From the IMG/VR virus record IMGVR_UViG_3300043443_000124, positions 1 through 44,205 of that record: 44,205 nt of DNA. One strand, 5' to 3'. Source of the stretch: a virus (Duplodnaviria > Caudoviricetes). Made by a program: the position numbers and the translations under genes. The notes beneath the pieces are model-generated. The model saw only the letters and a list, made by a program, of their open reading frames with translations, made no database searches and was not told the DNA's origin. This document shows, one piece after another, positions 14,812-42,277 of this stretch. Position 1 is the stretch's first letter. Each line of letters opens with the position of its first letter.

Positions 14812-14814
14812 GGA

Positions 14815-22406: not shown

Positions 22407-25400
22407 TTAGGTAAGGAGTCGGAGCAGCTTACTCATCTGTGATTGCACCTCACCTTGAGAGTAAACATCTGCTCCAGACATGTAGGATTTGAGATCAGCC
22501 GTAGCAATATCTGCATCCTCTTTACCGATCTTTGCTTCAACTCTTGTAATCATCGAATCGATGAGGTCCTTGAGTCCAGCAGGCAGATCGCTAAACTTAA
22601 TTTTGTCGGCTTCTTTACCGAACGGTAGTGGAAGGTTGGCAATTGTCTTACCTAGTTCCGCTGCTGTAAGTCTAACATTCTCTAAAGCCTGGGCATTTAG
22701 AGCACCAGCGTCTAGACGGTCAATCATTCCAAGCAGTTCTGAGCTTGCACTTACAGATGCGGCGTAGTCACCAGCGAAGTCTAGGTTTTCTGCAGCTTCA
22801 GCCTTCTCTAGAGCCTTAGCCAATCCAGCAACACCTAAGTCCTGCTTAAGACGAGCAAGAACTGTGCGGTACTTACCCTTAGCATCACGAGGCTGGTTGA
22901 CGCCAGATACATACTTTTGTCTACCATTTTCGTCATAGGTATCTTCTACAGTTGTGCGACCAGCCTTAACATCTTCGGCACGAGCGATCTCTTCTTCAGT
23001 CTGCTTTTCAGCTTCCTTTTTAGCTTCGCGGAGCTCTTTTAGGTCTGAGTCAGAGATCTCTTCCTCTTTTGGGGCAGCAGCCACCACCGCCTCTAGCTTT
23101 GCACGCATAGATGCAACTACGCTTGCAGCCTCAGCTGAGTCAGCGTTCTTCCAGTGCTGAGGAATAAGAGCTTCCTGCTTCAACTTGCGAGCCTGCTTGA
23201 TGATGTGCTTTCGGACTTCGCGACGCTCTGAAGCTTTTGCGCGACCATAAGCCTGAATAGCATTCTTAAGGTCTTCTACATTGCGAATTGGGTAAGCGCC
23301 ATCTGGCATTGCCTTACCTTCCTTAGCAAGCTCCATGCGCTCTTCTTCAGAAATCTTTGCAAGCTCTGCTACCGCAGCTGCTACAAGAGTCTTCTCACGA
23401 AGCTCAGCAGCGCTGGCAGTTAGAGCCTGCAAGTTGGCAGCACGTAGTGCCTTCTTTGCTTCCCTGACACGGCCTTTTAGATCTGGAGCACTAGCTGCAA
23501 GCTCTCCAAGCATTTCTGCCTTTGTGGAAAGAGCGCAAGCTGCCCCAGAGCACTTCATCATTGCCATGTAGCTAGCACCAGCTGCAACTAGGGCAAGAAC
23601 CTTACCAGAAGCAATCATGGCGCGAGCGGTTGGGAAGCCTGGTACGTTTACCTGACAAATAGCAACAAGTTCAAGAGAACCGTTAATTGGACGCCAGTCA
23701 CCAGAAGGAGCAGAAGCACGAAGTGCACGGATCTGAAGCTCATCTAGATTCGGACGTAGGGATCCAGCGCACCAGATTCCGTACTCGTCTTCTCCAACAT
23801 GGATATCTGCAACAGCAGATGCGGTGTCGTCATAGTGCTTTGCAGCAGTCATGGCGTCAACATTTAGCGGAGCATGTCCGCCAGCAAGAGTAAGCTGACC
23901 AACAGGAACATCAGTACCTGCTTCAGTTCTAATAACTCCAGTGTGGAAGTAAGCATACTTGCTGCGAGAGCGAGGAGGCTTAGTTGCACGTGGCAGTCCG
24001 ATGTGGTTTACGTTCCAGGCCGCAATGTGCCCGTAGACGCGACCATCATCGGTAACAGTTAGTGGGGTAGCCTTAGTGAACCCTGGGTTCTGGAACCAAT
24101 CTGCTGGTGGCGTCATCGGGATATCTGACTTTAAAAAGCCAGATGCTGTAATAGGTTCGACGTCAGCAAAGTCCTGCATAGACTCTTCGTATACGCCATC
24201 TTCTGGGGTCACGTTTTCCTCCTGATCCCCTTCGGCTTGCAACAAAATAGAGCATTCTTGGAATGCTGGCTTAGCTACAATTGTAGCAGCCATTATGCGG
24301 GCCTTATTTATGGTAAGTTTATCCTTACCAAATTCCTGCCCATCTCCCTCAGCCATTTCTGGTTCTGGCTTCTTCTCTTCTTTTGCCTCAAACTGGTCGA
24401 GGTCTACAGAAACACCACGCAAGAATCCGTGGCGAACTAAGCGCTCTGCTTCTCGACCATAAGGACCCGTGTCAAACACACCGCGAGCATTACCCATTCC
24501 GCCTTCAATACGCTCGATGTAGTCGATACGTCCAACTACAACAGAACCGTCGTGACCAGCACCAGTTTTGATTTGCCATAGAAGTGGCACTGGCAGGTCA
24601 CGCATAGTGATAGCGCCCTTGCGGAACTTTCTGCCATCGCCAGATTCGGCTTCCTCTGGGACAAGCATTGGAATAGTGAAGCTGGCTCCCTGCTCTGCAC
24701 GAACAGACGCAACTAAGCCAATCTTCTCTCTAGCATCCGAAGCTAGGGCAGCTAGGCGACCCTTCTCAATCATTGCCTCGTTGAATGCTTCTTCTGACGT
24801 GTACAGATTCTCCATACCCGAGAAAGAGTTATTCTTCTTGCCTGGGTTGTATTTGCTACCAGTGTAAACACCAGTTGCCTCCTTATGGCGAAGCTGGCAA
24901 TAGCCCTTCGCACGTGGGCCCATGTACTTGGAAAGTTGACGAACGCAGCGAGTCCAGTCACCAGGAGTGCCCCAGCGGATCTTGAGAGCACCCTTACCAG
25001 TAGTCCAGTAACGGCGAAGCTTCTCGGCATTGCCACGGTTGCGGTCGAATCCGCCAGCAGCAAGTAGTGGCTCTACTACCTTTTCCCAGAAGATCGAGAA
25101 CTCTAATGCAGAAGCCTGAACTGGTGCCTTGTCGTCTACCTGAAGGAGGACATCGTTCAAAACTTCTTTGTCATCTAGAGCAACTACAGGAGGTGGAGCA
25201 GACGACTTTAGGTCCATAAGAACCTGGCCATTAGGAACCCACTTGCCGCCTTCGCGAACAAAGGTTGCTGGCTCGGAAGAGGTTGCGCTAGCTGGCACTA
25301 AGGCAACAAGATCCATAACAGCCGAGTGGTCGTCTGGAGAAACTAGAGCTAAATACTTTGGAGCTACGTCAGACTTGTCTGGGGTGTATACAGAATCTAA

Positions 25401-26723
25401 GCCAACCTCTGCAGATGCAAATGTCAGACCGTGACGGTCTTTCACAAACTTCTTGTCGTACTCCTTCAGACCCTTAGGCTTGTCAGCGTGAAGCTTATAT
25501 GAAGCACGCGACTTCTCCACAAACTTAGGGTAGTTAGAGATCAAGTTGTGTAGGTCTGATCTCGTTAGAGGCTTCATGGTTCCAGGCAAATGAGCCTTAG
25601 GCATGTTCGATGGGGTTCTAGGTTCCGCCAAAATGCCATCAAAGTTGATAGGAGGCATATTGTCTTTGTTTAGAACTGTAGGAGCGTCAACATCCTCCTC
25701 AGCTTCAGTGTATTTTGCGTCTACAGAGATGCTCTTACCGCTGTCAAGTCGTACTTTGACCTTACCAGTTTTGTAGTCAACTGACTCAATGGTTCCAGAG
25801 CCGCGCTCGCGGTCTCCAGCAACAACAGTTCTTGAACCAACTTTTACGAACTCGCCGTTGGCGTTTCTAGGCTGGCTTGATGCAATAGATGATCGCTCTT
25901 CAGGAGTGTAATTTCCATCTTTGTCAGTAGGAGATTCGCCAGCAGCGGTAATTACTCGATCAATAGTGGTGAAATCTTCTCCAGCAAGACCTTCTTCCAT
26001 AAGAAGTGTCTCCTCTGGGTCAATCTCGCTCAAAAGTACAGACTGAAATGGTCGTTCTTGCAAGAAAGCAGAGATGATTACTGCCGAAGATGGGTCAATC
26101 AGAACGTGTGTTTTCTCTACAAGATCGCTAGGGTCATCAAGAGCTGCGTCATATGAGTAAACATCGCCATCCACGTGTCCCATGTTGTCCCAGCCAGAGC
26201 CATCCCAAAGATATACCTGGCCATCGACATCTACTTTATATAGGCGGTCAATTCCAGAGTTGTCCAGGCGAATGCGAGCCATAAATTCTGGGCCCATGTA
26301 TGGGTCAAGCTCGTGAGCCATCTTGAAAGCATCAAGCTCATCGTAAGTCTCTTCGGTCTCTACAAAACCATAAGCACCGCCAGCAGTGGTAGCTTGCTTC
26401 TTATTCTCTCGCTCTACGATTGCAGCAGCCCAACGCCAAGCAGCGTCTCCACCCCAAAGAGCCCAGGCAATGCGGCCGTTAGACGGGAACTTGTCTTCGC
26501 CTGGTGCCCAGCCTTTGCCCTTCTTGTCGACTTCGTGACGAGGGAAGTACTTCGCGATGTGACGGATCTTCTCGATACCAATCTGACCGCCCTTTGCTAG
26601 GGTGCGAGCGGTGTTCAAGCCGACAGGTGTGCCGCCGCGCTTGTGTTCTTTTCTCCACTCAAGGGCCTTTTTAGCTTCCTTTTGGACGCCTCCAGGGATG
26701 GTATAAAGTTTAGAAGTCGACAC
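22407..26723 (-). CDS. Multidomain prohead (capsid maturation) protease fusion protein
   Basis: Directly upstream of the capsid gene. Protease-like core SGDGR.F...PVPLLWQ...GHDGSVVVGRI...GVSVDLD...ATIVAKPAF; further modules NGRIAWALWGGD, LRRYW...IRWGTPGDWTRC, DGRVYGHIAAW...SGDWR and YPIRNVEDLKNAI. Confidence 0.75.
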   Translation of the reverse strand: MSTSKLYTIPGGVQKEAKKALEWRKEHKRGGTPVGLNTARTLAKGGQIGIEKIRHIAKYFPRHEVDKKGKGWAPGEDKFPSNGRIAWALWGGDAAWRWAAAIVERENKKQATTAGGAYGFVETEETYDELDAFKMAHELDPYMGPEFMARIRLDNSGIDRLYKVDVDGQVYLWDGSGWDNMGHVDGDVYSYDAALDDPSDLVEKTHVLIDPSSAVIISAFLQERPFQSVLLSEIDPEETLLMEEGLAGEDFTTIDRVITAAGESPTDKDGNYTPEERSSIASSQPRNANGEFVKVGSRTVVAGDRERGSGTIESVDYKTGKVKVRLDSGKSISVDAKYTEAEEDVDAPTVLNKDNMPPINFDGILAEPRTPSNMPKAHLPGTMKPLTRSDLHNLISNYPKFVEKSRASYKLHADKPKGLKEYDKKFVKDRHGLTFASAEVGLDSVYTPDKSDVAPKYLALVSPDDHSAVMDLVALVPASATSSEPATFVREGGKWVPNGQVLMDLKSSAPPPVVALDDKEVLNDVLLQVDDKAPVQASALEFSIFWEKVVEPLLAAGGFDRNRGNAEKLRRYWTTGKGALKIRWGTPGDWTRCVRQLSKYMGPRAKGYCQLRHKEATGVYTGSKYNPGKKNNSFSGMENLYTSEEAFNEAMIEKGRLAALASDAREKIGLVASVRAEQGASFTIPMLVPEEAESGDGRKFRKGAITMRDLPVPLLWQIKTGAGHDGSVVVGRIDYIERIEGGMGNARGVFDTGPYGREAERLVRHGFLRGVSVDLDQFEAKEEKKPEPEMAEGDGQEFGKDKLTINKARIMAATIVAKPAFQECSILLQAEGDQEENVTPEDGVYEESMQDFADVEPITASGFLKSDIPMTPPADWFQNPGFTKATPLTVTDDGRVYGHIAAWNVNHIGLPRATKPPRSRSKYAYFHTGVIRTEAGTDVPVGQLTLAGGHAPLNVDAMTAAKHYDDTASAVADIHVGEDEYGIWCAGSLRPNLDELQIRALRASAPSGDWRPINGSLELVAICQVNVPGFPTARAMIASGKVLALVAAGASYMAMMKCSGAACALSTKAEMLGELAASAPDLKGRVREAKKALRAANLQALTASAAELREKTLVAAAVAELAKISEEERMELAKEGKAMPDGAYPIRNVEDLKNAIQAYGRAKASERREVRKHIIKQARKLKQEALIPQHWKNADSAEAASVVASMRAKLEAVVAAAPKEEEISDSDLKELREAKKEAEKQTEEEIARAEDVKAGRTTVEDTYDENGRQKYVSGVNQPRDAKGKYRTVLARLKQDLGVAGLAKALEKAEAAENLDFAGDYAASVSASSELLGMIDRLDAGALNAQALENVRLTAAELGKTIANLPLPFGKEADKIKFSDLPAGLKDLIDSMITRVEAKIGKEDADIATADLKSYMSGADVYSQGEVQSQMSKLLRLLT

Positions 26724-30300: not shown

Positions 30301-31032
30301 TTCTATTTTCTGAATCAAACTCTCGACGGTCTCTTTAGTGTCTCCGTTATATGCAATCTCGGCCATAAGCTCTGATAGTGCATCTCTAGATGTTAGATCT
30401 GGCTCGCCTTCTCCAGCACCCTTGTCAAACTCGTCTGGGTCAACGCCAGAATCACGGAGAAGCTGCTTAACTTCCTCTGGGTTTTCGGCTTCGAAGCCAG
30501 CTGGCATATCAGCAATAGGAGAGTTCTCTCGTCCATCCTGCTCGGCAGCCTTTTCTTCAGGAGTCAGCTCGCCACGTGCTAGACGCTCGTCTTCAGCTGT
30601 GATCTCCTGCGAGTTTGAAAGTAGGTTCTGCAAGTCTGGAAGCTTAGAGTCTTCAAGAGTTTTTACTGGCTTACCGAACTTGTCAGTTCTCTGGCCCTTC
30701 TGTCCGCCGTCAGCGTCAGGGATAATAGCTTTAAACTGCTGAAGGTTTCTTGACTCGACTTCATAGATACCAGCCTTTAGGCCAGAGTCCGTGTCTTTCG
30801 CAACCATAACGCGGGCAAAGCCTGGCTTACCTGATGGACCTACGTAGACACCGCGAGCTGTTGCAACTACTAGGTTGCCATCGCCAGTACGGAAGCGGAA
30901 CAGTACGTCCGCACCCATCTCAATCCATTGACCTTCGTCATCACGAGGCTGGATTCTCCAGAAACCCTTGTTGGCACCGTCATTAAAGCCAATGCCAGCG
31001 GTTAGTGCGGTGAATGTCAAGTCTTCGGACAT
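27358..31032 (-). CDS. Large multidomain head-region protein with C-terminal zincin-like metallopeptidase domain
   Basis: C-terminal HVIAHEFGH...ITRYG...EHFAESF (HExxH plus distal Glu); N-terminal QPRDDEGQW; Pro/Ala/Glu linker; several L.PG(D/Q) beta-rich modules. Confidence 0.72.
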   Translation of the reverse strand: MSEDLTFTALTAGIGFNDGANKGFWRIQPRDDEGQWIEMGADVLFRFRTGDGNLVVATARGVYVGPSGKPGFARVMVAKDTDSGLKAGIYEVESRNLQQFKAIIPDADGGQKGQRTDKFGKPVKTLEDSKLPDLQNLLSNSQEITAEDERLARGELTPEEKAAEQDGRENSPIADMPAGFEAENPEEVKQLLRDSGVDPDEFDKGAGEGEPDLTSRDALSELMAEIAYNGDTKETVESLIQKIEAESKIKKTRGFNLDRGNVIRASDGNDYTIEDLSLSDGWMKLLTADGRPVTRPIDDPKNPGQKIPSRFFPLDPKKDYSVVQAKKGLPKPVKPAPKAEIPSEPEAPATPEAVEPSVPETPEVPEAPAAPAKPQKVGAAPRRKDDGKTIKRQTFTPEELEELRKAKLDELVDENGEAVLETDAKGKIRRPRDPNAMLNFLAATYKNSKFNDRDQLVLMRETSTENGKNIQWEIRAAITGEKKIAYMFHFKDLDTGEEQTLLHKDARDSVQALFGKTNGPEVLADILTGKETRKYSPTFDTAIHANDVLERSLYFKYQGRTKTVAESAKYYSTGYAQRVNPVNGTLLEQEVPSTFEAYERGDRDALEARLRAVFGRLPVDEQTHEEARTAIRELFAERFPDADKRSFGIAVTMASRAVQKNLLDTPENRAVPWSSKDKVTSLEPGQVVEYTNNIGEKSVVKVVARQKVNTAAPAQSDDIFDYGDYVTVIDADGKRTSLPSTSLAILKDQETALTTYKGRVSGARMREERGVFYTPGTLRFPGQTSIPDKISKVDDLVPGDNFYSKEGANLGVVVESVPIVGKDDKKGFGILYINRDGEVKKAAVAAGEERGPKLITSNVEAAKPTKQIIPDVDESDPDFDLDSIEFETDPNTIERPKSVGLDFNVPVNAKRNAEQQLALNEEVQREIDELASDLKDKFPGWEFDSSSLNATSYFNAGELAKLIDAARTQYPDLTDSEIRTLLELKHSKQRGFFGMTKQQMIAEILKEPAKYRKTDGAIRDISVDLEVGPNGKLAPAFPENELTDYFGTIQSIDKFLGDQGVADSFGSMDHTIRLVSKESKFSALYRSAGGLNPSGVLGVNIALPKSDGSFTTTILVNAEALRGGGLPEDAYFGTPFSHVIAHEFGHTIQNFINIFGFKTNPRYAKVAAEKITRYGESSYGEHFAESFSKFLQTGEASEVFKEFLVESGILSASNVEEVEKKAKD

Positions 31033-31071
31033 GAAATATCCTCTACATATAAAGATAAGAAGCTATCTAAA

Positions 31072-31079
31072 ATTTTACC
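31072..31079 (-). promoter_or_regulatory. Recurrent GGTAAAAT promoter -10 element
   Basis: TTACGGTAAAATTT in the intergenic gap before the 1224-aa gene. Confidence 0.6.
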
Positions 31080-31089
31080 GTAATAATAT

Positions 31090-31779
31090 TTAATTGACTT
31101 TAGAGTAGCGATCAGATAAGTTTTTGATCTGCTGAAGAGTGCCTTCAGTTAGCGAACCACTCGAAACCATAGCTCTAATTCTAGTACTAGCGTGTAGAGA
31201 CTTTACGTAGTCAGAGTCTTCGCTGAATGCAGTCAGTAGAGCTTCTCTTCCCGAATTGTCCAGGTCAGGAGCTCCAGCTACCCAAGCTGCGGCAGCCGAC
31301 ACAGCACATTCGGTGTCTGGGTGGCCTTCAGCAGTGAACTCTGCGTACATAGAGAAGTCTTCTCCATCCGCAACTGTTCCAGTTGTAGCGTATTCAGCAA
31401 ATGTGTGAAGCTCCCACATAATCGCTGAGTGGATGTCGTCGCAAGAAGCTAGGTAGCTGTACTTTTCCAAGGCAGCCCTAGCAACCGAGTATGCAGACTC
31501 CTTTGAAACGTGTCGAGAAACACCGAACGATGAGTTAACGTCATCAATCAAATAATTAATGGTGGCAGAAGAAGGTACGCAGTTAGGAACGCGCTTGCCA
31601 TTCTTCTCCTTCATGCCAACCTGAACATAGCCAGACCAGCAAGGATCATCCTCGTCCTTCTCTAGAGCAGCTTCAGTTTCAGTCTCCTCTTCAGGGGTGA
31701 TGATTTTTTCTTCAGTCAAAATCTCTTCTGGAGCTGTAGCTCCTCCAGTAGCTAGAATTACTTTTTCGATGTATTCCAT
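31090..31779 (-). CDS. Hypothetical head-region protein with a CWxGY...VPNCVP motif
   Basis: 229-aa ORF coupled to dps (TAATG); contains DPCWSGYVQVGMKEKNGKRVPNCVP. Confidence 0.65.
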   Translation of the reverse strand: MEYIEKVILATGGATAPEEILTEEKIITPEEETETEAALEKDEDDPCWSGYVQVGMKEKNGKRVPNCVPSSATINYLIDDVNSSFGVSRHVSKESAYSVARAALEKYSYLASCDDIHSAIMWELHTFAEYATTGTVADGEDFSMYAEFTAEGHPDTECAVSAAAAWVAGAPDLDNSGREALLTAFSEDSDYVKSLHASTRIRAMVSSGSLTEGTLQQIKNLSDRYSKVN

Positions 31780-32234
31780 TAGCGAACCCCTAAGAATGCC
31801 TTAATCTGCCAAATCCACTTAGCGTACATGTCCATGCGTGTAGCCAAGAAGTCCATTAGTCCCTGCAGATTGCAGTGGTTTGCGTGGCGGAAAGCCTCTT
31901 CATGGCAATCATAAAGGTGCTGGACAACACGAAGAGCTGACTCCAATAGGAATCTGCTAGAGCTGCCATCTTGACGATCTTCTCTAATACATGACATCTC
32001 TACGAAGTCTGAAAGAAGATATGGAGCTGGGAATCCAACCTTTAGGATATTCTCCGCTAGATCGTCGATAGAGCCGTCAACATCTGCATATAGCTCCCCG
32101 AAAAACTCGTGGTACTCGCCGAAGTCTGGGCCCATAACATTCCAGTGGTAGCCCTGAAGAATGAATTTTGCGGAGACTACATCAGAAAGCAGTACTGCTA
32201 ACTTCTGTGCTACGTCTGTCTTACTGCTTTCCAT
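31779..32234 (-). CDS. dps: Dps family mini-ferritin (DNA protection during starvation)
   Basis: Dps signature YHWNVMGPDFGEYHEFFGELY, ferroxidase segment DDLAE, C-terminal KWIWQIKA; 151 aa. Confidence 0.9.
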   Translation of the reverse strand: MESSKTDVAQKLAVLLSDVVSAKFILQGYHWNVMGPDFGEYHEFFGELYADVDGSIDDLAENILKVGFPAPYLLSDFVEMSCIREDRQDGSSSRFLLESALRVVQHLYDCHEEAFRHANHCNLQGLMDFLATRMDMYAKWIWQIKAFLGVR

Positions 32235-32235
32235 G

Positions 32236-33954
32236 TTATACCTCTGGTTCTGCTAGCCCTGGAGCTTGCGCTTCAGTTGGCGCGGCACCTTCTGGTGATC
32301 CGCCTTGTAGTAGTTGATCAATGTCTGGTGGAATTGGTGCCCCACTTTGCTGCATGTTCTGTCCGCGAACCTTCTGCATCAGCTCTGGAGCAACGGCACC
32401 AAGCATGGACTCTGTTAGCTCTGGACTAACCATGCCCTTGCTCATGATGAGTCTCAGTGCGAACTCTGTAGGGTCAGGCGCGTCGGTCTCAGAGAAACCG
32501 TGAGCACGACGCCATGCGTCATACGAAACCGCCATCTTGTCAAAGCCCATGTCAGCGTCTGCAGCGCGGTCATTGCGAGTAGCAACCAGGCTTGGGTCAT
32601 ACCAAATGCAAACGTTCTTAACCTCTTCTTCAGAGTAACCGTTAGCAACTAGGTATGGACGCAAGTACATAACTGTCAGTGCGTCAACGATAAGAAGCAT
32701 CAGAGGCTCGATGTGCGCCTTGTAGAGGGCTTCATCAATCTGTAGGGCGTTGGAGTACTTAACGTTCGCAAGTCCCGTTACAACGTCTTTGGGGACGTCT
32801 AGACCCTGCATGATACGCTCTAGTACACGGTCTGCACGCTGAGCAAGAGCTGGGTCGAATGAACGCTCGAACTTGAACTGCTTAATCTTGTCACCAAGTT
32901 CAGCAGGACCACGAATGATCAAAGGAACAACGGCGCTCGCAGAGTCCTCGTCCTTGATCGGAGTGGTCATTGCATCGATTAGCTGGTCTTCAAAGTCATC
33001 AGCCGCTTCTTCAGGGGTGTAAGTCTCGTTGTAATTGCCATCTTCATCGTAAGGATAGTCAGGATCAGGACCAGCAGCAACAGAAAGGCCGTCAGGAAGA
33101 TACAGAGCGCCAGCATTGAGGCGAGAGCGAGCAGTCGCACGGAATGTCCTATTCAGTAGTAGGAGCTCAGCACAGAGATCTAGTAGACCACGTAGTGAAG
33201 AGTCAGCCTCTTGGCTATAGCGAGGGTGTGAGCGCCAAATGCGACCAACAAAAGCTTTCTGAGGAAGAGCAATAGCTTCCTTGTTGCCCTGAGACATCAT
33301 TCCACCGTTACCAACGTCACGACGTGGGTTGATGATGTAGTTTCCCTTTGAGTCAACCTGTAGTTCGTCCACTGAACGAATGTCCCAGCTCTCTGGGAGT
33401 CCCGAACCAATACGCTCTGGGACCTGAACTAGGTAGCACTCGCCAGTTACCTGAATATTTAGAGCTGCATCCTTGAGAAGACCAGCCTGCCCGCCAAATG
33501 CAGAGCTTAGACGGTCCAAAGCACGCTGAGAAGCCGCTGCTAGGCGAGAGTCAACCTTGCTAACGTCTTCAATAGGGGCTGGAGCTTCGTTTGGGTTGTT
33601 TACTGCAGCAGCATAGAGGCGGATACGTGAAACAACAGACGCAACTAAGTTAAATGCGTACTTGATTTCTCCAATTGAGTCGTAGTACTCCCAGGCCTCG
33701 GTCTGCCAAGAGGTAGAAGCTGATTGGCGGCGAGCCTTAAAGAGCTCTGCTTCGCCTTTATCGTTGAGATTTACCTGAGCAGCGGCAGCAGTGAGTGGTC
33801 GAGGAGTGTTAAAGACTTGAGGCTCGGCGTAGACGATTCCAAACGAGTCAACTGAGATGCCAGGAGCAACACGAGTAGCGTTCTTTGGGGCTGAAGCACG
33901 CACGTTTCTGCGAGTCTCACTCGGCTTTGCGTTTTCTTTCTTAAAAATACCCAA
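32236..33954 (-). CDS. Portal protein
   Basis: WQTEAWEYYDSIGEIKY...SRIRLY, TGECYLV, RIWRSHPR....DS and SAVVPLII, resembling cluster-B-like actinophage portals; downstream of terminase. Confidence 0.88.
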   Translation of the reverse strand: MGIFKKENAKPSETRRNVRASAPKNATRVAPGISVDSFGIVYAEPQVFNTPRPLTAAAAQVNLNDKGEAELFKARRQSASTSWQTEAWEYYDSIGEIKYAFNLVASVVSRIRLYAAAVNNPNEAPAPIEDVSKVDSRLAAASQRALDRLSSAFGGQAGLLKDAALNIQVTGECYLVQVPERIGSGLPESWDIRSVDELQVDSKGNYIINPRRDVGNGGMMSQGNKEAIALPQKAFVGRIWRSHPRYSQEADSSLRGLLDLCAELLLLNRTFRATARSRLNAGALYLPDGLSVAAGPDPDYPYDEDGNYNETYTPEEAADDFEDQLIDAMTTPIKDEDSASAVVPLIIRGPAELGDKIKQFKFERSFDPALAQRADRVLERIMQGLDVPKDVVTGLANVKYSNALQIDEALYKAHIEPLMLLIVDALTVMYLRPYLVANGYSEEEVKNVCIWYDPSLVATRNDRAADADMGFDKMAVSYDAWRRAHGFSETDAPDPTEFALRLIMSKGMVSPELTESMLGAVAPELMQKVRGQNMQQSGAPIPPDIDQLLQGGSPEGAAPTEAQAPGLAEPEV

Positions 33955-33970
33955 GACGGGCTCCTACCTG

Positions 33971-34261
33971 TTATCGTTCAATCCAGGCTGACAAAAGCCC
34001 GACCGAAGCAGAAATAGCCAACACTAATGATACCACAGTAGCAGCTACGGGTAAAGTCAACCAGAAAATAACTACAAAAACCGACGCCCAGAACCCAGTG
34101 CACCAGTTACATGTAATTAAGTATCCAATTTTTGTGTTCGGTGGAAACTTTTTCCACACTTTTGTACGAAAACCATCGGCAATTGCATCTGTAGTGATCA
34201 GATGCGTCAATCTATAGGCAGCTAGTGCCAAAATCACAAACGTAGTTATGTCAATTCCCAA
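33971..34261 (-). CDS. DUF1360-like membrane protein
   Basis: LAAYRLTHLITTDAI...GYLITCNWCTGFW with hydrophobic helices; between terminase and portal. Confidence 0.75.
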   Translation of the reverse strand: MGIDITTFVILALAAYRLTHLITTDAIADGFRTKVWKKFPPNTKIGYLITCNWCTGFWASVFVVIFWLTLPVAATVVSLVLAISASVGLLSAWIER

Positions 34262-34262
34262 T

Positions 34263-34622
34263 TTAGTCCTTTATCGAGCCTAGAGTGTTGTATGGATTCC
34301 ATCCTCTTAGACGTGATCCACACCCGCAGCCAGTGTCTTTCTTGAATGCTAGCATCTTTCCTGACGTTGTGACAATAAAAGAATCTTTTGTAGGCTCCTT
34401 CGAAGGAATGAAGGTGTCATATGTCTCTCGAAATACGATTTGCGGGCCATCATTTCCATCCTTTGCGACCACAACGTGTGTTTCGGTAACTATAACTCGT
34501 GTAATTTCGAGATAATTTGACCCTGGAGTGGGTTCGAAGCTTCTCATGGTCGTTACATCTTCAATTTTTTCTGGTCCGATGGCAGCTAAGTGGCATGGAA
34601 AGCGATCAAGCAGAATTCTCAC
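34263..34622 (-). CDS. Hypothetical protein with C-terminal GCGCG motif
   Basis: 119 aa; its GTG start overlaps the terminase stop codon. Confidence 0.6.
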   Translation of the reverse strand: MRILLDRFPCHLAAIGPEKIEDVTTMRSFEPTPGSNYLEITRVIVTETHVVVAKDGNDGPQIVFRETYDTFIPSKEPTKDSFIVTTSGKMLAFKKDTGCGCGSRLRGWNPYNTLGSIKD

Positions 34623-36049
34623 TATTTCACCCTAAAAACACGGCCTGCAGGGCGATTATTTGGGTTTACAACACCTAATTTGCGGTCTGCAAAGCTCTTT
34701 GCACGGATTTTACCGCCAGAAAAGCCTGGAGGTGGCTTAATTAGTAGCGCGGTGAGCGCGTGAACCAGTGCGTCGACACGGTCAGGAGACTTAGACGCAC
34801 TTTCTGGGATCCAAGAGTACATCTGAGACTCTAAATCTTGCAAATATCCGACGTGGTGGACGCGCTTTTGCTCGTAAGCAAGCACTACTGGCTCTGCACG
34901 GAGAGCTTTTCCATATTTTGAGTGAACTTCTAGGACCTTAATGGTCGGATCGATCGAGAGGATGGCATTTTTAACGAGAGCGCCACCCTGATTAACCTCG
35001 GCAACAACGGGACAACCCCACTTGCGAGCCATTTCCACAACTTTACGGGCCCAGGTGTCGGGGGAACCATGAATTGTAGCGTCTTCAAGAACCCAAGCAT
35101 TTCTTTTATAGAGATCTTGTTCTGCAGTCGCTGCGCAGACAACAATGCCGCACTCGTCACGGGGATTCTCAGCAACCGAAGGGTCCACGCCGATAACACG
35201 TAACGGAGTAGCTGGAGGGTAAACCATCTCTCTAGCCGATTCAACCATCTCTTCATTCCAAAGAGCTCCTTCAACGTCGTCTAGCATCTCACCGTAGAGT
35301 TCCTGACGAGCTAGGCTGGTTCCTTCATATACTCCAGTAATTGTGTCCAAGTATGCCTGAGACAAGTTACCAGCGTTATCTAGGGTCGAACCTCTAGTCA
35401 CAACTACCTTGGCACCACCAGGGCGGTCAGTGCGCGACTCTTCAATTAGTTTGTAAAGAAGCGGAACACGCTTTGGCGTAGTGGTACAAATCAGTTTTGG
35501 GTTTCTACCGAGACGAGTACCAACTCGAAGGTTGTCGAATGCGGTCATACCTGCAGCATCTGGAGTCTGACGCCAAGCTGCGATCTCATCACCCCATGCG
35601 TGCGTGAACTGAGGACCACGGAGAGAGTCAGGCTCATCCGCGGTAAAGAGTGTTGCGGTGTTTCCATTTGGCCAAGTTAGACGACGCTTCGAAGGCTCGT
35701 AGTGTGGCTTCTCGGAAGGCGGCGAAATGTTGATGATACCTGATTCACCTTCAACAATAACGTCACGTACGTCAGCTGCAGTACGAGCAACTAGAGCGAA
35801 TCGACGCTGACCTTCGTTGGTATATTTAGCTTCTTCACGAACCCACTCGGATGCAAGACGAGTCTTACCAAAACCACGACCAGCGAGAACTAGCCAAACG
35901 TTCCAGTCATCACCTTTCGGGGCAAACTGCTCTGGACGCCCCCAGACGGACCAGTCCCAGACTAGTGCTTCTGGATCCATACCAGCAAGAATCGCATTGC
36001 GTTCTTCTTCGGGCAGCGTTGCTAGCTGCTCCATGATGCTTTTACCCAT
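34622..36049 (-). CDS. terL: Terminase large subunit
   Basis: Walker A AGRGFGKT, LRGPQ, Walker B WGDE, motif III TTTP, RQELYGE, nuclease residues GVDP, EVNQGG and SPDRVDA. Confidence 0.95.
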   Translation of the reverse strand: MGKSIMEQLATLPEEERNAILAGMDPEALVWDWSVWGRPEQFAPKGDDWNVWLVLAGRGFGKTRLASEWVREEAKYTNEGQRRFALVARTAADVRDVIVEGESGIINISPPSEKPHYEPSKRRLTWPNGNTATLFTADEPDSLRGPQFTHAWGDEIAAWRQTPDAAGMTAFDNLRVGTRLGRNPKLICTTTPKRVPLLYKLIEESRTDRPGGAKVVVTRGSTLDNAGNLSQAYLDTITGVYEGTSLARQELYGEMLDDVEGALWNEEMVESAREMVYPPATPLRVIGVDPSVAENPRDECGIVVCAATAEQDLYKRNAWVLEDATIHGSPDTWARKVVEMARKWGCPVVAEVNQGGALVKNAILSIDPTIKVLEVHSKYGKALRAEPVVLAYEQKRVHHVGYLQDLESQMYSWIPESASKSPDRVDALVHALTALLIKPPPGFSGGKIRAKSFADRKLGVVNPNNRPAGRVFRVK

Positions 36050-36053
36050 AGAG

Positions 36054-36587
36054 CTATTCTAGCTCAGACATTGAACGTAGAGAAGAAACTGGTACCAAAT
36101 ATGTTGGCTTGCCGTTCTCTTCTCCATTAATTAGGTCTGGGCGAAGAACTTCATTTGGATAGCACCAACCGTGTGCAATAAAGTCTGGAGTTCTGTAGTC
36201 GTTGATTGCACTACGAATAATTTTCTTCTCTGGTCCACCAGTCAGAAGCACGTAGGGGGAGTTTAGTTTGTCAACATCTCCGCTGAATCTCAGGGTTGGC
36301 TCTCGTAAGCCGCCATCCGTGAAGCGGTAACGAACTTCCCAGATGCCGACATCTGGTTCGCCTTTACGGGTATTCACGCTAGGGGAAAAATCATCCATGC
36401 CAAGCATTCTGGCAAACGCAATCTCGGACATAACTGTCATTGTGTGCTGCCAGGTCTCCCACATATCTCCCTCGGAGTATCTGCGGTTTGCTTCGGGTGC
36501 GCCTAAGTACGGCTGCTGTCGAAGAAATCCAACGCTGCAGGCAAGTGCCTCTTCTGTGGGGGTAAGTCCGTAAGCCCATCTAGTCAT
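36054..36587 (-). CDS. Hypothetical protein, possibly nuclease-fold
   Basis: 177 aa; SEIAFA...PDVG.WEVR resembles a degenerate PD-(D/E)XK pattern. The function call is weak. Confidence 0.55.
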   Translation of the reverse strand: MTRWAYGLTPTEEALACSVGFLRQQPYLGAPEANRRYSEGDMWETWQHTMTVMSEIAFARMLGMDDFSPSVNTRKGEPDVGIWEVRYRFTDGGLREPTLRFSGDVDKLNSPYVLLTGGPEKKIIRSAINDYRTPDFIAHGWCYPNEVLRPDLINGEENGKPTYLVPVSSLRSMSELE

Positions 36588-36624
36588 TTTGAAAGACTAT
36601 ATCTTCTTCGATAAAAATGCAAGT

Positions 36625-36671
36625 AAAAATAAAACACCCTGGCACTCTTTCGAGCTTGTTCCAGGGTGTTT
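36625..36671 (-). terminator. Intrinsic terminator closing the ncRNA transcript
   Basis: Minus strand AAACACCCTGG...GCTC-GAAA-GAGT...CCAGGGTGTTT followed by TATTTTT. Confidence 0.8.
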
Positions 36672-36679
36672 ATAGTGAA

Positions 36680-36857
36680 TAGGTGGGATGCTTTTTACCA
36701 CCAGGGCCTAGCTATTACGGTTCCAGTAGATCCGCTTTTGAGCCCACATGACGTTTGTCCGCTAAGACGATCCGCTAAGATCCGCCACTGCCTTACCTGC
36801 CCCATATAGCTTTGCAGGTTATTCAGCCATACTCCAGATCTCCCGTCGGATTTCTGT
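36680..36857 (-). ncRNA. Structured noncoding RNA candidate (possibly related to the manA RNA motif)
   Basis: No long ORF. Own extended -10 (TGTTAGGAT near 36865-36873) and own terminator. Stems ACCTGC/GCAGGT, GATC-TTAGCG-GATC, GTC-TTAGCG-GAC and GGTGG/CCACC. The family link is from memory only. Confidence 0.6.
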
Positions 36858-36879
36858 TGAGAATATCCTAACACAAGGT

Positions 36880-37476
36880 TTAGCTATTTGTTGGCCATTT
36901 TTCATTTAAAGCTGAAAAAATTTCTCGAGTGTAGTCAAAAGCAATAATTGCCTCGTCGATAAACTTTTGATAATCCTCTGGAGCGATTAGAGTGTCCAGA
37001 TTCTCTCGGTACGTTTCCTTGTAGCGGACGCGATCTCCGATGTCATCGAAGTCGTAGAAGGATAGGAAGTTTGGCGGAATCGAAAGGTTGCGTGCAACGA
37101 GCGTTCCTATTGCCTGACCTCCTGAGAGGTCTCCGAGGTAGCGGACGTAGTGGTGCGCAAGAATGCGTACCTCGTCCTTCTTCTGAATAAGCTTGTTGAT
37201 GTGACGAACGTACTTTATTGTTTCGTTGAGAACAATCCTGGTTCCGATGTACTCAAGGTCGGCAATGATTCGCTCAAAGCGGTCAAGGCGGCGATCGAAA
37301 AATGGCAGCTTGCCTTCCCACTTTTCAATGGCTTCATATATTGGAGCAAGCTGAGCTAGATAGTCAAAGTATGCCTCTGATGGCAAATCACCCTTCATCA
37401 GAGCAACCATAAATGGACTGCGCTCAGCGGCAGCGTGAGCATCTTTAGATGCCTCGCGAACTGACTGAGAAAGCAT
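36880..37476 (-). CDS. Heme oxygenase (HO-1/HmuO family, biliverdin-producing)
   Basis: Proximal His in HAAAE, IYEAIE, signature AHHYVRYLGDLSGGQ, FYDF and FIDEA..AF. Confidence 0.93.
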   Translation of the reverse strand: MLSQSVREASKDAHAAAERSPFMVALMKGDLPSEAYFDYLAQLAPIYEAIEKWEGKLPFFDRRLDRFERIIADLEYIGTRIVLNETIKYVRHINKLIQKKDEVRILAHHYVRYLGDLSGGQAIGTLVARNLSIPPNFLSFYDFDDIGDRVRYKETYRENLDTLIAPEDYQKFIDEAIIAFDYTREIFSALNEKWPTNS

Positions 37477-37507
37477 AGGTAATCCTTACTGGTTTAGGGG
37501 GAATTAG

Positions 37508-37518
37508 ATTCTACCACA
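37508..37518 (-). promoter_or_regulatory. Extended -10 promoter for heme oxygenase
   Basis: Minus strand TGTGGTAGAAT about 30 nt upstream of the ATG, followed by an AAGGA ribosome-binding site; a variant of the GGTAAAAT element. Confidence 0.6.
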
Positions 37519-37520
37519 AG

Positions 37521-37571
37521 TAAAAGACGCGGGCCCGATCGAGAATTCCCAATCCAAAGCCCGCGCCTCTT
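37521..37571 (-). terminator. Terminator hairpin downstream of katG
   Basis: Minus strand AAGAGGCGCGGGC...GCCCGCGTCTTTT with additional inner pairing. Confidence 0.7.
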
Positions 37572-37633
37572 ACAGAGAGTTACGACCACGTGTCGCGGTG
37601 ACACCAATCGTTCATGCCTCTAGGTGCAGTCTA

Positions 37634-39820
37634 CTAGAACTTGTCTAGTGTTGTCAACTTATACCAGACCCAAACGAACTCGTCAACGAACTTCTCTAGC
37701 GCGTCGTCTGAAGCGTAAACCTCAGCGAGTGCACGTAGAACTGAGTTCGAAGCGAAGACTAGGTCTGCGCGGGTAGCGGTCCACTTGCGCTCTCCGTTGA
37801 AGTAGGAGTGCGAACCGTAGACGCCCTTCTGGTCAGCCTTTGGAGCCCAAGCAATGTTGATATCCAAAAGGTTACGGAAGTAGGAGTTGTCTAGAACACC
37901 AGGGGTCTCAGTGAGCACACCGTGCTTGGTGTCTCCGTGAGTTACGCCTAGTACACGTAGACCACCAACAAGAACTGTCATCTCTGGAGGAGTCAGACCA
38001 AGTAGGGCTGCCTTCTCTAATAGTAGACGCTCTGCAGCATCCTCCGTGCCTTCAGGGATCCAGTTAGTGAATCCATCGGCTAGAGGCTTCAGGTAGTTGA
38101 ATGACTCGACGTCAGTCCACTCCTGAGTAGTGTCAGTGCGCCAGTTCTCGAATGGAACTTCGCCTGAAACGCCAGCCAAAGATGCTGCACGCTCGATAGC
38201 AACGTTTGATCCAAGAATGATCAAATCAGACTTGACCAACTTAACGCCAGTGTCAGTAGCAATCTTTTCTAGAGTTGCTACAACCTCGTTGATCTCGTCA
38301 GCGTTGTTTGACTCCCAGCTAATCTGTGGCTCAAGTAGGACGCGTGCGCCGTTAGCACCACCGCGCTTGTCCGAGTTACGGAAAGTCGAGATAGCAGACC
38401 ACGCTGTGCGGATCAACTTAGGAGCAAGCTCTGGGTTGGAGTTAATTGCCTGAAGAATACCAGCCTTGAGCAGGTATAGCTCTGGTGCAGAGACTATCTG
38501 TACCGAAGTCTCTCCAATAACTGGATCCTGCCAAATTAGATCTTCAGTAGGAACCTCTGAGCCAACATAGCGAGAACGTGGGCCCATGTCACGGTGAGTT
38601 AGCTTGAACCAAGCGCGTGCGAATACCTCTGAGAAGTAGTCGAAGTCTGCAAGGAACTTCTGGCAGATAGCGTCATACTTCTCGTCACCGAAACGTAGAG
38701 CTAGGTCAGTAGTTAGCATGCGAATCTCAACGTAGTCGTTCTTCAGGTGAGCATGAGGAGCTAAGTGAATCTCGTCTGCTACTGGCTTCCACTGCTTGGC
38801 ACCAGCTGGAGACTCTTCAAGCTCCCACTTGTCGTACTCGTAGATCATCTTTAGGTAGTCGTTATCCCACTGAGTCGGGTTTGGAGTCCAAGTAACCTCT
38901 AGACCAGAGGAGATGGTATCTTCCGAGTGGCCCTTGCCCTGTGAGTTTGCCCAGCCAAGACCAGCCTGGTGGATGTCTGCACCTTCTGGCTCCTTGCCAA
39001 CCTGTGAAGCATCGCCAGCACCGTGAGTCTTACCGAAAGCGTGACCACCAGCAATCAGAGCAACAGTCTCCTCGTCATTCATTGCCATACGGCCGAATGT
39101 CTCGCGGATATCTGCAGCAGCTAGCTTGAAGTCTGGGTTGCCATCTGGACCTTCAGGGTTTACGTAAATAAGTCCCATCTGAACTGCAGCAAGAGGGCCC
39201 TCTAGAGTTTCTGCACCGCGTGACTCGTCGTAACGCTTGTTTGCTAGCCACTCGGTCTCTGAACCCCAATAAGTGTTGTCTGGCTCCCAAACATCTTCAC
39301 GTCCGCCAGAGAATCCATAAGTCTTAAGACCCATGTCCTCAAGTGCAACGTTACCTGCAAGGATCATCAAGTCAGCCCAGCTGAGCTTCTTGCCGTACTT
39401 CTGCTTAACTGGCCAAAGTAGACGGCGAGCCTTGTCTAGGTTTACGTTGTCAGGCCAAGAGTTAAGTGGCGCGAAACGCTGTAGACCCTGACCGCCACCT
39501 CCGCGACCGTCAGTTGCACGGTAAGTTCCCGCGCTGTGCCAAGCCATGCGAATAAAGAATGGACCGTAGTGGCCGTAGTCTGCTGGCCACATCGGGTGAG
39601 AAGTCTTCATAATCTCAGTGATATCGGCCTTAACTTGAGCCAAGTCTAGAGATAGGAATTCCTTCTTGTAGTTGTAGTAATCGTTTAGAAACGGATCACT
39701 CTTCTCCGAGTTGTGGGTAAGAGCATCAGTAGTTAGCTGCTCTGGCCACCACTTAGTTGTGTTGGTAGTTCCCGTAACGTTAGACGCTCCGTGCGGAACT
39801 GGGCATTTTTCTTCTGCCAA
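37634..39820 (-). CDS. katG: Catalase-peroxidase, full length with both domains
   Basis: WPADYGHYGP, distal RMAWHSAGTYR, SWPDN.NLDKARRLLWP, MGLIYVNPEGP, FGRMAMNDEET, proximal GGHAFGKTHG, TDLAL, WFKLTHRDMGP and C-domain SDKRGGANGAR. TTG start with GGAGAGGA. Confidence 0.98.
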   Translation of the reverse strand: MAEEKCPVPHGASNVTGTTNTTKWWPEQLTTDALTHNSEKSDPFLNDYYNYKKEFLSLDLAQVKADITEIMKTSHPMWPADYGHYGPFFIRMAWHSAGTYRATDGRGGGGQGLQRFAPLNSWPDNVNLDKARRLLWPVKQKYGKKLSWADLMILAGNVALEDMGLKTYGFSGGREDVWEPDNTYWGSETEWLANKRYDESRGAETLEGPLAAVQMGLIYVNPEGPDGNPDFKLAAADIRETFGRMAMNDEETVALIAGGHAFGKTHGAGDASQVGKEPEGADIHQAGLGWANSQGKGHSEDTISSGLEVTWTPNPTQWDNDYLKMIYEYDKWELEESPAGAKQWKPVADEIHLAPHAHLKNDYVEIRMLTTDLALRFGDEKYDAICQKFLADFDYFSEVFARAWFKLTHRDMGPRSRYVGSEVPTEDLIWQDPVIGETSVQIVSAPELYLLKAGILQAINSNPELAPKLIRTAWSAISTFRNSDKRGGANGARVLLEPQISWESNNADEINEVVATLEKIATDTGVKLVKSDLIILGSNVAIERAASLAGVSGEVPFENWRTDTTQEWTDVESFNYLKPLADGFTNWIPEGTEDAAERLLLEKAALLGLTPPEMTVLVGGLRVLGVTHGDTKHGVLTETPGVLDNSYFRNLLDINIAWAPKADQKGVYGSHSYFNGERKWTATRADLVFASNSVLRALAEVYASDDALEKFVDEFVWVWYKLTTLDKF

Positions 39821-39832
39821 TTTAGTCCTCTC

Positions 39833-40048
39833 CTAGTTGTCGTTCTTTAGGTGTGCGCAAACTGCACGCGCAATAGTGTCGGCAAACATTAGCTGCTGCT
39901 CTTCAGTGGAGTTGAACCATCCACCAACCTTTGGAAATTCCAAGGCTTTTGCATTTCCCGAAAGAATTTCATTAACTCGAGCTGCAACAAGAAGTGCAAA
40001 ACGCTCTTGCTGTAATTCTACGTTGTATTGGTCGATAAGTTCCTGCAT
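39833..40048 (-). CDS. Hypothetical protein
   Basis: 71 aa; coupled to the upstream HTH gene (TAATG) and ends 12 nt before katG. Confidence 0.6.
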   Translation of the reverse strand: MQELIDQYNVELQQERFALLVAARVNEILSGNAKALEFPKVGGWFNSTEEQQLMFADTIARAVCAHLKNDN

Positions 40049-40638
40049 TACTGGTTATCCTCGATCACTCGGTTGTCTTTAATAATCGGCTGGTAAACCT
40101 TGGACTTTGCAGTCTTTGGTTGAATGTACCCGTAGCGAGCCAAACGGAAGCGAATGGCACCATGAGTAATTCCAAGTCGTTTCGCCAAACGGTATAGCGT
40201 AACGCCTTCAACAGTTCGAGCATAGTTAAGCAGTGCAGTGTACTCCTCTGCTTCTGCTCGGTACTTAGATCCGTTCGCTCGAACCTGCTGTGCGTATGGT
40301 TGTAGCTCAAGCAAGCGGGCGAGAGTTTCTGGAGAAGGCTCGATATATTCGCGTGGCTGCTTCTCTGCAATAACTGGCGGCTCTGGGATCTCCACCTCAA
40401 GCGGGCCGATCAGATCTGCTGGCAACTTAGCAGCAGAGTTAGAAATCTGGCGAACGCGCTCTCTAGTGAGGCCACTGGCGTTTGAAATCGCTTCATATGT
40501 CCAATTAGCATCAACCAGCTCTCGAATTAGTCGATCTCTGCGGAAATTATCCGTGATCATCTCGAACTGCGCGTTAATGCTGTCTGGTAGGCGCTGGTTT
40601 TTCTTGATGTACTTCTTGTCGTCGCTTGTGGTAGTCAT
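40048..40638 (-). CDS. Double helix-turn-helix DNA-binding protein
   Basis: WTYEAISNASGLTRERVRQI (sigma region-4-like HTH) and VTLYRLAKRLGITHGAIRFRL. Confidence 0.75.
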   Translation of the reverse strand: MTTTSDDKKYIKKNQRLPDSINAQFEMITDNFRRDRLIRELVDANWTYEAISNASGLTRERVRQISNSAAKLPADLIGPLEVEIPEPPVIAEKQPREYIEPSPETLARLLELQPYAQQVRANGSKYRAEAEEYTALLNYARTVEGVTLYRLAKRLGITHGAIRFRLARYGYIQPKTAKSKVYQPIIKDNRVIEDNQ

Positions 40639-40659
40639 TTTTCTCTCTTTATGCTTGGG

Positions 40660-41113: not shown

Positions 41114-41118
41114 GGGTA

Positions 41119-41286: not shown

Positions 41287-41288
41287 GT

Positions 41289-41495: not shown

Positions 41496-41510
41496 ACCGC
41501 TAGCATAACA

Positions 41511-42221: not shown

Positions 42222-42277
42222 TGGCGGCCTACCTTTCCTTATTGAGAGTAATTTCTCAGCCGTTATTGAGTAGTGAC

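Follow-up and report, generated by a model that had tools for sequence, protein, structure and literature searches.

Gene content and integrity of the locus

The stretch analysed here, referred to as the window, is the full 44,205-nucleotide virus record IMGVR_UViG_3300043443_000124. It harbors genes for a catalase-peroxidase (KatG), a heme oxygenase (HO), and a Dps mini-ferritin, all intact open reading frames (ORFs) on the minus strand within a span of 8,042 bp (Table 1). The original prediction had placed three intact genes around the terminase-portal block, and ORFs, profile scores, and active-site residues all agree with this observation, which is thereby confirmed. The phage nature of the window is evident from a terminase, a portal (phrog_776), a major head (phrog_777) and a major tail protein (phrog_792), and polA, and the GC level is flat over the katG/HO/Dps region.

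Table 1. Coordinates of the features discussed, in window positions
Feature	Position	Strand	Remarks
Head-maturation polyprotein	22407..26723	-	phrog_18402 match
Dps mini-ferritin, 151 aa	31779..32234	-	Directly after portal in head operon
Portal protein	32236..33954	-	phrog_776; stops 1 bp ahead of Dps
Terminase large subunit (TerL)	34622..36049	-	PF03237, PF17289; downstream border of cargo slot
177-aa ORF	36054..36587	-	phrog_18407; accessory, same slot, only in some relatives
Terminator-like hairpin downstream of HO	36632..36671	-	-21 kcal/mol, z -4.3
HO, HO-1/HmuO fold family, 198 aa	36880..37476	-	No bilin reductase partner
Extended -10 promoter-like motif TGGTAGAAT before HO	37508..37516	-	Positional conservation in relatives
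Terminator-like hairpin between katG and HO	37517..37573	-	-37.7 kcal/mol, z -6.6 vs 200 shuffles
KatG, 728 aa	37634..39820	-	Accessory, in slot between HTH gene and terminase
71-aa ORF of no family	39833..40048	-	Travels with peroxide gene
HTH protein	40048..40638	-	PF04545, phrog_686; upstream slot border, kept in relatives

Contigs from other studies' runs, each covering single boundaries and none the whole stretch, bridge the Dps-portal (X3 record 30500-32674), portal-TerL (X3 32645-36781), HO-katG (X3 36755-39058), and katG-HTH junctions (X3 39429-42500), with a flat depth of about 22 in X3, as well as the junction between g36054 and HO (X8 36476-37390). The gene order is repeated in many records, including three complete genomes. 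Together, bridging contigs and repeated order rule out misassembly, and the concern about a coverage break at the katG/HO boundaries is settled. The same order with all three genes is present in L001/L002, L004-L006, L008, L009 (katG truncated by the contig end), L010, L018, L351, and G010:C118; at least 8 further phages in a clade of actinophages of 152-154 kb thus share the triple. The dN/dS values of the three genes (0.05-0.17) indicate purifying selection, and their codon use is phage-like. As expected of phage antioxidant AMGs, they are kept by selection and have phage genes on either side in what is a genuine phage genome.

Three proteins with conserved active sites

KatG is a full-length two-domain protein that scores 953 bits against TIGR00198 (cut-off 770) and 1043 bits against PRK15061 (cut-off 981), and its motifs align to 5l05. 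Residues R91, W94, H95, D124, Y219, M245, H260, S305, W311, D372, and R410 are invariant in all 16 phage copies; among these are the distal R-W-H, the Met-Tyr-Trp adduct residues, the proximal H-W-D, and the switch Arg. Against its three closest copies, katG has a dN/dS of 0.10-0.14. In trees built with cellular homologs, the sister group of the phage KatGs consists of eight cellular sequences, five of them titled Rhodoluna, and Nanopelagicaceae KatG lies elsewhere; these trees (a quick tree and FastTree, with L142 left out because it carries a stop) are unrooted, and transfer may have run from host to phage or the reverse. The window KatG is 67-69% identical to cellular KatG.

HO scores 126 bits against PF01126 (cut-off 23). 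Its best solved match is the HmuO-type 1iw0 from Corynebacterium, an enzyme that releases iron from heme; the proximal His and the GDLSGG motif with the catalytic Asp are common to both, and H14 and D116 are kept in 14/14 copies. The phage protein differs from HmuO in that identity is about one third, it is phage-borne, and no DtxR-like box was found. Specifically, a search with the DtxR/IdeR box consensus gave none near HO and one 3-mismatch match far from it, at 24314, equalled in 10 of 100 shuffles. All phage HO copies form one clade in the tree and are only 33-44% identical to cellular HOs; for HO, synonymous sites compared with the window copy are close to saturated (pS 0.67-0.73), which limits its dN/dS. 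A ferredoxin-dependent bilin reductase (PF05996) was found in 0 of 5 clade records, three of which are complete, and a phytochrome PHY domain in none of the genomes scanned for it (three candidate hosts and two complete phages). A scan of 174 of the 191 ORFs of relative G001 gave no ferredoxin, so the reductant of HO would have to be the host's. In HO lineages that lack katG, a DUF2218 gene precedes HO, and this family has been found beside siderophore-uptake genes (PMC11317620). HO is a clade-specific lineage without bilin reductase, and it is the unusual member of the three because most genomes of the probable hosts have no HO and no route to heme.

Dps is a divergent member of its family: it passes PF00210 (39.6 bits, cut-off 24.5) and falls below the cut-offs of three NCBIfam Dps equivalogs (33-35 bits vs 114-300). 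Its predicted structure (pLDDT 92.9; helices at 2-32, 38-53, 56-66, 74-80, 93-120, and 124-148) has a TM score of 0.90 to Dps 8ff9, BC helix included. The intersubunit ferroxidase ligands (two His, Asp, Glu, and Trp; H30, W31, H42, D57, E61) are present in 44/44 copies, the second-shell Asp position varies among copies and is Gly here, and there is no long basic tail. Dps directly follows the portal in 51 of 53 loci and belongs to a packaging/head cluster in 67 of 83 ranked viral loci; outside this portal type, 22 of 38 loci lie in such a cluster and 14 do not. In other phages it is fused to prohead protease S78 (10/14 scanned long ORFs), and in L273 a homolog of the window's head-maturation polyprotein has a Dps domain inserted, with PF00210 between matches to residues 707-1062 and 1125-1438. 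Dps is thus a core head-operon gene.

A swappable slot upstream of the terminase

By contrast with the core Dps, katG and HO are swappable accessory cargo. The slot carries KatG in 11 and AhpC in 3 of 36 lineages, never both; in the latter three, AhpC-TrxB-Trx replaces katG. This mutual exclusion suggests that selection maintains the removal of peroxide rather than a particular gene for it. Among distant relatives, most carry neither katG nor HO in the slot (21/36 lineages). Among 27 close HO loci, HO adjoins katG in 17 and lacks any slot peroxide gene in 8, and it adjoins AhpC-TrxB-Trx in L047/L049; katG and HO each occur without the other in some lineages. The predicted co-occurrence stands insofar as the triple recurs in relatives and HO is significantly associated with a peroxide gene over all 36 lineages (p 0.0007); restricted to the closer lineages, the association loses significance (p 0.29).

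The two genes also differ in their closest relatives. The nearest KatG (91%) is that of L010, whose HO is only 67% identical; the nearest HO (83%) is that of L003, whose KatG is at 63%; and TerL is 96% identical to that of L008, whose KatG is at 65%. Relatives have hairpins at the equivalent position between katG and HO, although the hairpin sequences are unrelated. The T, G, T, A, A, and T columns of the promoter-like motif before HO are invariant in 11/11 aligned upstream regions; the motif by itself is no rarer than chance in the window, its evidence being positional conservation, and scanning for promoters in general gave no more matches than chance. The 71-aa ORF was scored in 12 of 14 lineages with slot katG or AhpC vs 2 of 22 without; family profile searches with it gave none, and its Atlas matches were all <0.9. 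L024 has this ORF too, overlapping the HTH end.

The likely host lacks most of these functions

We infer that the host is a small-genome freshwater member of the Microbacteriaceae, most likely Rhodoluna. The codon usage of the window and of G001 and G004 fits G006/G007 best (r 0.68-0.82), and TrxB of a relative is 70-76% identical to Microbacteriaceae vs 63% to Nanopelagicaceae. Local tmRNA scores, a weak host pointer, are 169-213 for Rhodoluna-titled genomes, 167-178 for Nanopelagicaceae, and 181-183 for G010.

Across 121 genomes of the Rhodoluna-like genus of G006, HO is found in 1, ferritin/Dps in 0, katG in 31 (24 over cut-off), and ferrochelatase in 4, with the control COX1 in 111; in the Microbacteriaceae family, 126/201 genomes have HO. 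The sole Rhodoluna-genus HO lies ~0.6 kb from katG. As for other genes of heme degradation or uptake, two of five Rhodoluna-genus genomes have the ABM family and none PF01497 binding proteins. Rhodoluna is reported to be auxotrophic for heme (PMC12381374). Two observations count against this picture of the host: the best-fitting Rhodoluna lineage encodes its own katG, and binning placed one clade phage with G010, which belongs to a different genus of the Microbacteriaceae. NrdE of G010 and of the phage are 79% alike, and 12 further genomes of 62 in that genus have HO.

Proposed peroxide and iron control from two places

The phages' iron demand is larger than first proposed. Complete relatives encode 15, 11, and 15 2OG-Fe(II) oxygenases, clade relatives have two WhiB and NrdIEF, and the Cas4-like exonuclease suggested as an Fe-S recipient has a four-cysteine pattern (C18, C264, C268, C274). 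HO is not needed for the iron oxygenases, because G005 has 15 of them and no HO.

With a probability of roughly 0.55, we propose that the phage supplies peroxide and iron control that its streamlined host lacks, from two separately controlled places. The host would have shed most of its iron and peroxide housekeeping, with the phage carrying replacements. The slot before the terminase would provide an HO with its own promoter and a means of removing peroxide, which is KatG in this phage and AhpC-TrxB-Trx in sister lineages; KatG would destroy H2O2 inside the infected cell, and HO would open host-imported heme to yield Fe(II), biliverdin, and CO. Iron freed in this way could feed the 11-15 phage Fe(II)/2-oxoglutarate enzymes and Fe-S proteins, with loose heme removed. 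Dps would be expressed late, alongside the head proteins, and probably associates with the head, where it may bind Fe(II) and use up H2O2 beside the DNA being packaged. Purifying selection, conserved active sites, and gene content are consistent with the peroxide protection and iron supply originally predicted, an interpretation that is partly supported overall. It counts against the combined model that heme is scarce and that KatG needs what HO would destroy. We advance more tentatively, as a possibility well short of an even chance, that the clade runs its own heme-to-iron economy in hosts that have no ferritin and can carry out neither synthesis nor breakdown of heme. In this economy, a phage-specific HO of long residence would mine imported heme, an exchangeable peroxide remover would shield iron enzymes, and Dps would form part of the virion head, protecting the DNA inside or buffering iron when the phage enters a cell.

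The locus was originally read as one three-gene set, which in its strong form would be a single co-acquired and co-regulated redox module. All three genes do share one locus in at least 8 other phages, and HO accompanies a peroxide gene over the 36 lineages, but this reading is largely refuted and now improbable: KatG, HO, and TerL have discordant closest relatives, a terminator-like hairpin and HO's own promoter motif split katG from HO, each of these two is also found alone, Dps is core where they are accessory, and HO stands at 33-44% to cellular homologs vs 67-69% for KatG. An assembly chimera, or neutral hitch-hiking of host DNA, has a negligible probability given the bridged boundaries, the repeated gene order, dN/dS far below 1, and phage-like codon use, even though such artefacts exist: the 7 GenBank records that matched katG among isolated phages are either contigs of bacteria or very small entries with no annotation.

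Other explanations concern HO itself. It could be a detoxifier rather than an iron source, clearing heme from host cytochrome turnover, with biliverdin as an antioxidant acting in the same direction as KatG/AhpC. Its frequent position beside katG or AhpC-TrxB-Trx fits this, as do the single Rhodoluna-genus HO near katG and a suspicion, voiced in bioRxiv 2021.01.11.426183, that excess heme harms a katG-less acI strain; we nevertheless regard it as rather unlikely, given the 8/27 loci without a slot peroxide gene, the non-significant association in close lineages, and the Fenton-active iron that HO frees. We give still less credence to an anti-host weapon that destroys irreplaceable heme (and releases CO), stopping respiration or a heme-dependent sensor or defence and cutting endogenous ROS or an abortive response. 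The likely hosts need heme (COX1) and cannot make it (ferrochelatase), and HO has a host-type promoter motif, but a large lytic phage needs host energy, phage KatG itself requires heme, and no heme-dependent defence was identified here. Biliverdin production for a pigment or light sensor, as in cyanophage ho1-pcyA/pebS cassettes, is very unlikely; the Pfam family is common to cyanophage Ho1 (28-34% identity), but bilin reductase is missing from the five clade records and PHY domains from the phages and candidate hosts scanned.

Under the favored reading of peroxide and iron control, the consequences would reach beyond this locus. Few lake bacteria are as abundant as the streamlined freshwater Actinobacteria, which rely on their neighbours both to provide heme and to clear peroxide; a phage restoring catalase and adding heme breakdown and iron storage would reroute heme iron during infection. 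The exchange of KatG and AhpC-TrxB-Trx in one slot argues, on comparative grounds, that phage replication in lakes is limited by peroxide, and the HO would offer a testable case for phage heme oxygenases outside photosynthesis, a question left unanswered in PMC11480375.

Relation to known systems

Viral katG and phage ferritins have already been published, so novelty rests on HO. The literature search, which covered mainly open-access papers and the main text of bioRxiv preprints, found neither the katG/HO/Dps triple nor a stand-alone actinophage HO, although the Lake Mendota AMG table may list it. The Mendota study (Zhou et al., bioRxiv 10.1101/2024.02.06.579183) likewise describes katG on phages of fresh water and proposes that it clears H2O2 to the benefit of actinobacterial hosts. 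That katG is linked with Nanopelagicales (Planktophila, Nanopelagicus) as well as with heme synthesis (ahbD), the sense of "heme" in all four text mentions compared, whereas the window KatG clusters with its Rhodoluna counterparts and has a heme-degrading partner. Antioxidant genes of freshwater phages also appear in Kavagutti et al. 2019 (PMC6802176), with a PF00210 ferritin-like domain in 114 phages as well as thioredoxin, GSH peroxidase, and redoxin; its Table S5 has neither catalase-peroxidase nor heme oxygenase, and the passages compared gave no link between ferritin and a head operon.

HO-1-type enzymes are likewise known from aquatic phages, as ho1 with pcyA/pebS/pcyX and as hemO-pcyA-alaS cassettes, and an iron-supply role has been raised for them as speculation (PMC11480375; bioRxiv 2020.02.13.942896). 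The HOs of those cassettes share about 30% identity with the window HO and, unlike it, have a bilin reductase as partner. The window HO has no bilin reductase, has peroxide-gene neighbours, and probably serves in actinobacterial hosts. A Baikal viral metatranscriptome table contains one heme oxygenase, with no host given.

Bacterial Dps (8ff9, 1n1q) and the Dps of S-SRM01 and Lactobacillus myophages have the four-helix bundle, BC helix, and ferroxidase ligands of the window Dps, which differs in having no long basic tail and in its second-shell Gly. Its fixed place after the portal also sets it apart: the S-SRM01 copy lies outside the head genes, and those of Lactobacillus myophages are described near replication genes.

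The peroxide, heme and iron genes lie in two modules

The window is a fragment of a tailed phage (44,205 bp) whose long genes all lie on the minus strand. As originally noted, katG and the genes for heme oxygenase (HO) and Dps are all present at the stated positions, and each passes family tests. When the gene boundaries were checked for misassembly, every one was bridged by contigs from two other studies, with flat depth. Three complete relatives (152–154 kb, with direct terminal repeats) carry katG, HO and Dps (G001), AhpC, TrxB and Trx with HO and Dps (G004), or katG and Dps (G005).

Coordinates in the window and in loci from other records (L-numbers)
Feature	Record	Positions	Strand
HTH gene	window	40048-40638	
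71-aa ORF	window	39833-40048	-
katG	window	37634-39820	-
HO	window	36880-37476	-
Terminase	window	34622-36049	
Dps	window	31779-32234	-
1224-aa head-region protein	window	27358-31032	-
Major head protein	window	20134-22287	-
HO beside AhpC-TrxB-Trx	L047, L049	8834-9415	
Dps fusion ORF	L298	5578-7974	
Dps fusion ORFs	L277, L303		
2OG-Fe(II) oxygenase array	L163 (G001)	9244-19053	
tmRNA	L156	15671-15971	
tmRNA	L168	5090-5421	
PstS	L108	8620-9669	
Thioredoxin-like proteins	L056, L058, L059		
DUF2218-TrxB	L093	7701-8940	
Glutathione peroxidase family protein	L156	12538-13164	

Catalytic residues, assigned by comparing motifs with those of solved structures, are unchanged in 16/16 KatG, 14/14 HO (His14, Asp116) and 44/44 Dps copies. 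For KatG, dN/dS is 0.10–0.14 to its three nearest copies, with a median of 0.17 across 42 pairs; it is 0.04–0.08 for HO, near saturation, and 0.05 (median) for Dps, compared with 0.08 for terminase. The genes are real and under selection, and enzyme activity is predicted from sequence for all three products. The HO copies beside AhpC-TrxB-Trx in L047 and L049 (G004, G333) have a very long branch and are 40% identical to the window's HO; their distal-motif changes (S118A, G119A, and R157G; dN/dS 0.08 between the pair) possibly alter activity.

The claim that the three genes form a single set fails: Dps is linked to the portal, katG and HO are scattered, and the closest relatives differ by gene. 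The layout is two modules. Among the best 80 of 437 terminase matches, Dps directly follows the portal in 51 of the 53 loci holding that end. The cargo slot, bounded by the HTH gene and terminase, could be read in 53 loci, which fall into 36 lineages when terminase DNA is grouped at 95% identity; 11 lineages carry katG, 3 AhpC-TrxB-Trx, and none both. HO occurs in 8/14 lineages with either peroxide system vs 1/22 others (P = 0.0007, one mixed group scored by its first member), but the association has P = 0.29 among the 18 lineages whose terminase is ≥84% like that of the window. When 48 records, most of them fragments, were searched in full, katG was present in 18 and HO in 11; in the 42 chosen by terminase, the counts were 13 and 9, with both in 7.

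Viewed from HO, 27 loci reach ≥60% identity, some being the same contig in two collections; 26 of them sit in the slot, and the remaining one is too short. Of the 27, 17 adjoin katG, 8 lack it, and 2 are unreadable. None of 71 more distant HO loci had the clade's phage genes. katG and HO are dispersed across the terminase tree, nearest relatives are not the same for each gene, and between katG and HO lie a strong hairpin and an extended -10 motif that is conserved. In G350, another record, katG lies outside the slot. The 71-aa ORF, of no known family, accompanies KatG or AhpC in the slot and is a candidate partner or regulator. Further cargo, whether inside the slot, close to it or elsewhere in the genome, includes PstS, thioredoxin-like proteins, DUF2218-TrxB, and a glutathione peroxidase family protein.

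Dps and the head region

We surveyed three loci found earlier together with the 80 best viral Dps matches, out of at least 573. Of these, 45 follow the window's portal type; among the other 38, 22 have terminase, portal, protease or capsid genes of several unrelated families around Dps, 14 form one group with Dps between replication and baseplate genes, and 2 are unclear. Dps is fused to prohead protease S78 in 10/14 long ORFs scanned, and in L273 it is inserted within a homolog of the window's head-maturation polyprotein. These positions, fusions and insertion point to late, head-associated use. In other phages, head-region ORFs join a Dps domain to DUF5824 or to a kinase domain of the zeta-toxin family. 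The window's head region also encodes a 1224-aa protein that matches no family and has a HEFGH metalloprotease-like motif near its C terminus, and a major head protein whose N terminus is extended by a long acidic stretch.

Origin of the genes and likely hosts

In the tree built against host homologs, a sample biased by query, every one of the 20 phage KatGs falls into a single group, the copies from other actinophage types (L026, L030) among them. Its sister is a set of eight cellular KatGs, of which five are titled Rhodoluna, and the KatGs of Nanopelagicaceae and the G010 genus lie apart. Phage HOs form their own clade and share 33–44% identity with cellular HOs; some 94 clusters fall at 55–95% identity, followed by a gap down to 48%. 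Copies of katG from the same phage lineage also sit near nrdIEF elsewhere in the genome and in other actinophage types (L022/L039, L026/L028, and L030/L031), so the gene moves between phages. One Rhodoluna KatG type (L114–L121), among variable surface-protein genes, is nearer to the phage KatGs than to other Microbacteriaceae KatGs, and may reflect phage-to-host transfer.

Rhodoluna, reported as a frequent phage host (bioRxiv 2020.08.14.250803), is the probable host judging by codon usage, by how similar TrxB is, and by the KatG tree; co-binning and NrdE favor a second small-genome Microbacteriaceae genus, that of the MAG G010. Host physiology is covered elsewhere (bioRxiv 2021.01.11.426183; PMC12381374). 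Among mostly incomplete genomes, the Rhodoluna-like genus of G006 (121) has HO in 1, PF00210 in 0, katG in 31, ferrochelatase in 4 and COX1 in 111. The G010 genus (62) has HO in 13, PF00210 in 5 and katG in 23, each of these three counts including the binned phage contig. HO was found in 126/201 genomes of the whole family and 0/121 Nanopelagicaceae genomes searched, again mostly incomplete. The binned contig (G010:C118; L113, L173, L221, and L230) comes from a phage of this clade, contributes its actinobacterial MAG's only katG, HO and Dps, and would mislead host metabolic inventories. tmRNA with the tag ANSRSAFALAA and several tRNAs occur in both complete relatives represented by L156 and L168.

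Iron supply or heme detoxification

Iron enzymes such as Fe(II)/2OG oxygenases, RNR and Cas4-like nucleases require iron and are damaged by peroxide. The complete relatives encode 11–15 Fe(II)/2OG oxygenases, JmjC proteins, two WhiB and a class Ib RNR; the window encodes a Cas4-like nuclease that has four cysteines. In a heme-auxotrophic host lacking HO and ferritin, phage HO would open an iron pool closed to the host, KatG or AhpC would shield DNA as well as iron enzymes, and Dps at the head would serve as an iron buffer. In katG-less lineages HO is preceded by a DUF2218 gene, which weakly fits an iron role. Against iron supply, G005 carries the iron enzymes but no HO, HO and KatG compete for heme, and the search for a reductant in the phage came up empty (no ferredoxin in the 174 of 191 G001 ORFs scanned). 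The main rival is that HO detoxifies loose heme.

Two of the three genes are of kinds already described. Earlier reports cover viral katG (bioRxiv 10.1101/2024.02.06.579183; PMC12713726), phage ROS defense and ferritin in 114 freshwater phages (PMC6802176, including Table S5), and phage Dps or host dps/catalase induction during infection (PMC6669764; PMC7354516). Phage HO is accompanied there by bilin reductases (PMC11480375; bioRxiv 2020.02.13.942896), whereas no such reductase was found in five records of the window's clade. Literature searches gave no account of the three genes together, nor of an actinophage HO standing alone; supplementary tables may bear on this. What merits testing is the reductase-free HO, in phages whose hosts are probably heme auxotrophs.

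A tandem array of more than 10 2OG-Fe(II) oxygenase genes lies beside collagen-repeat tail genes and glycosyltransferases in G001, G004, G005, and G350, and perhaps modifies tail fibers.
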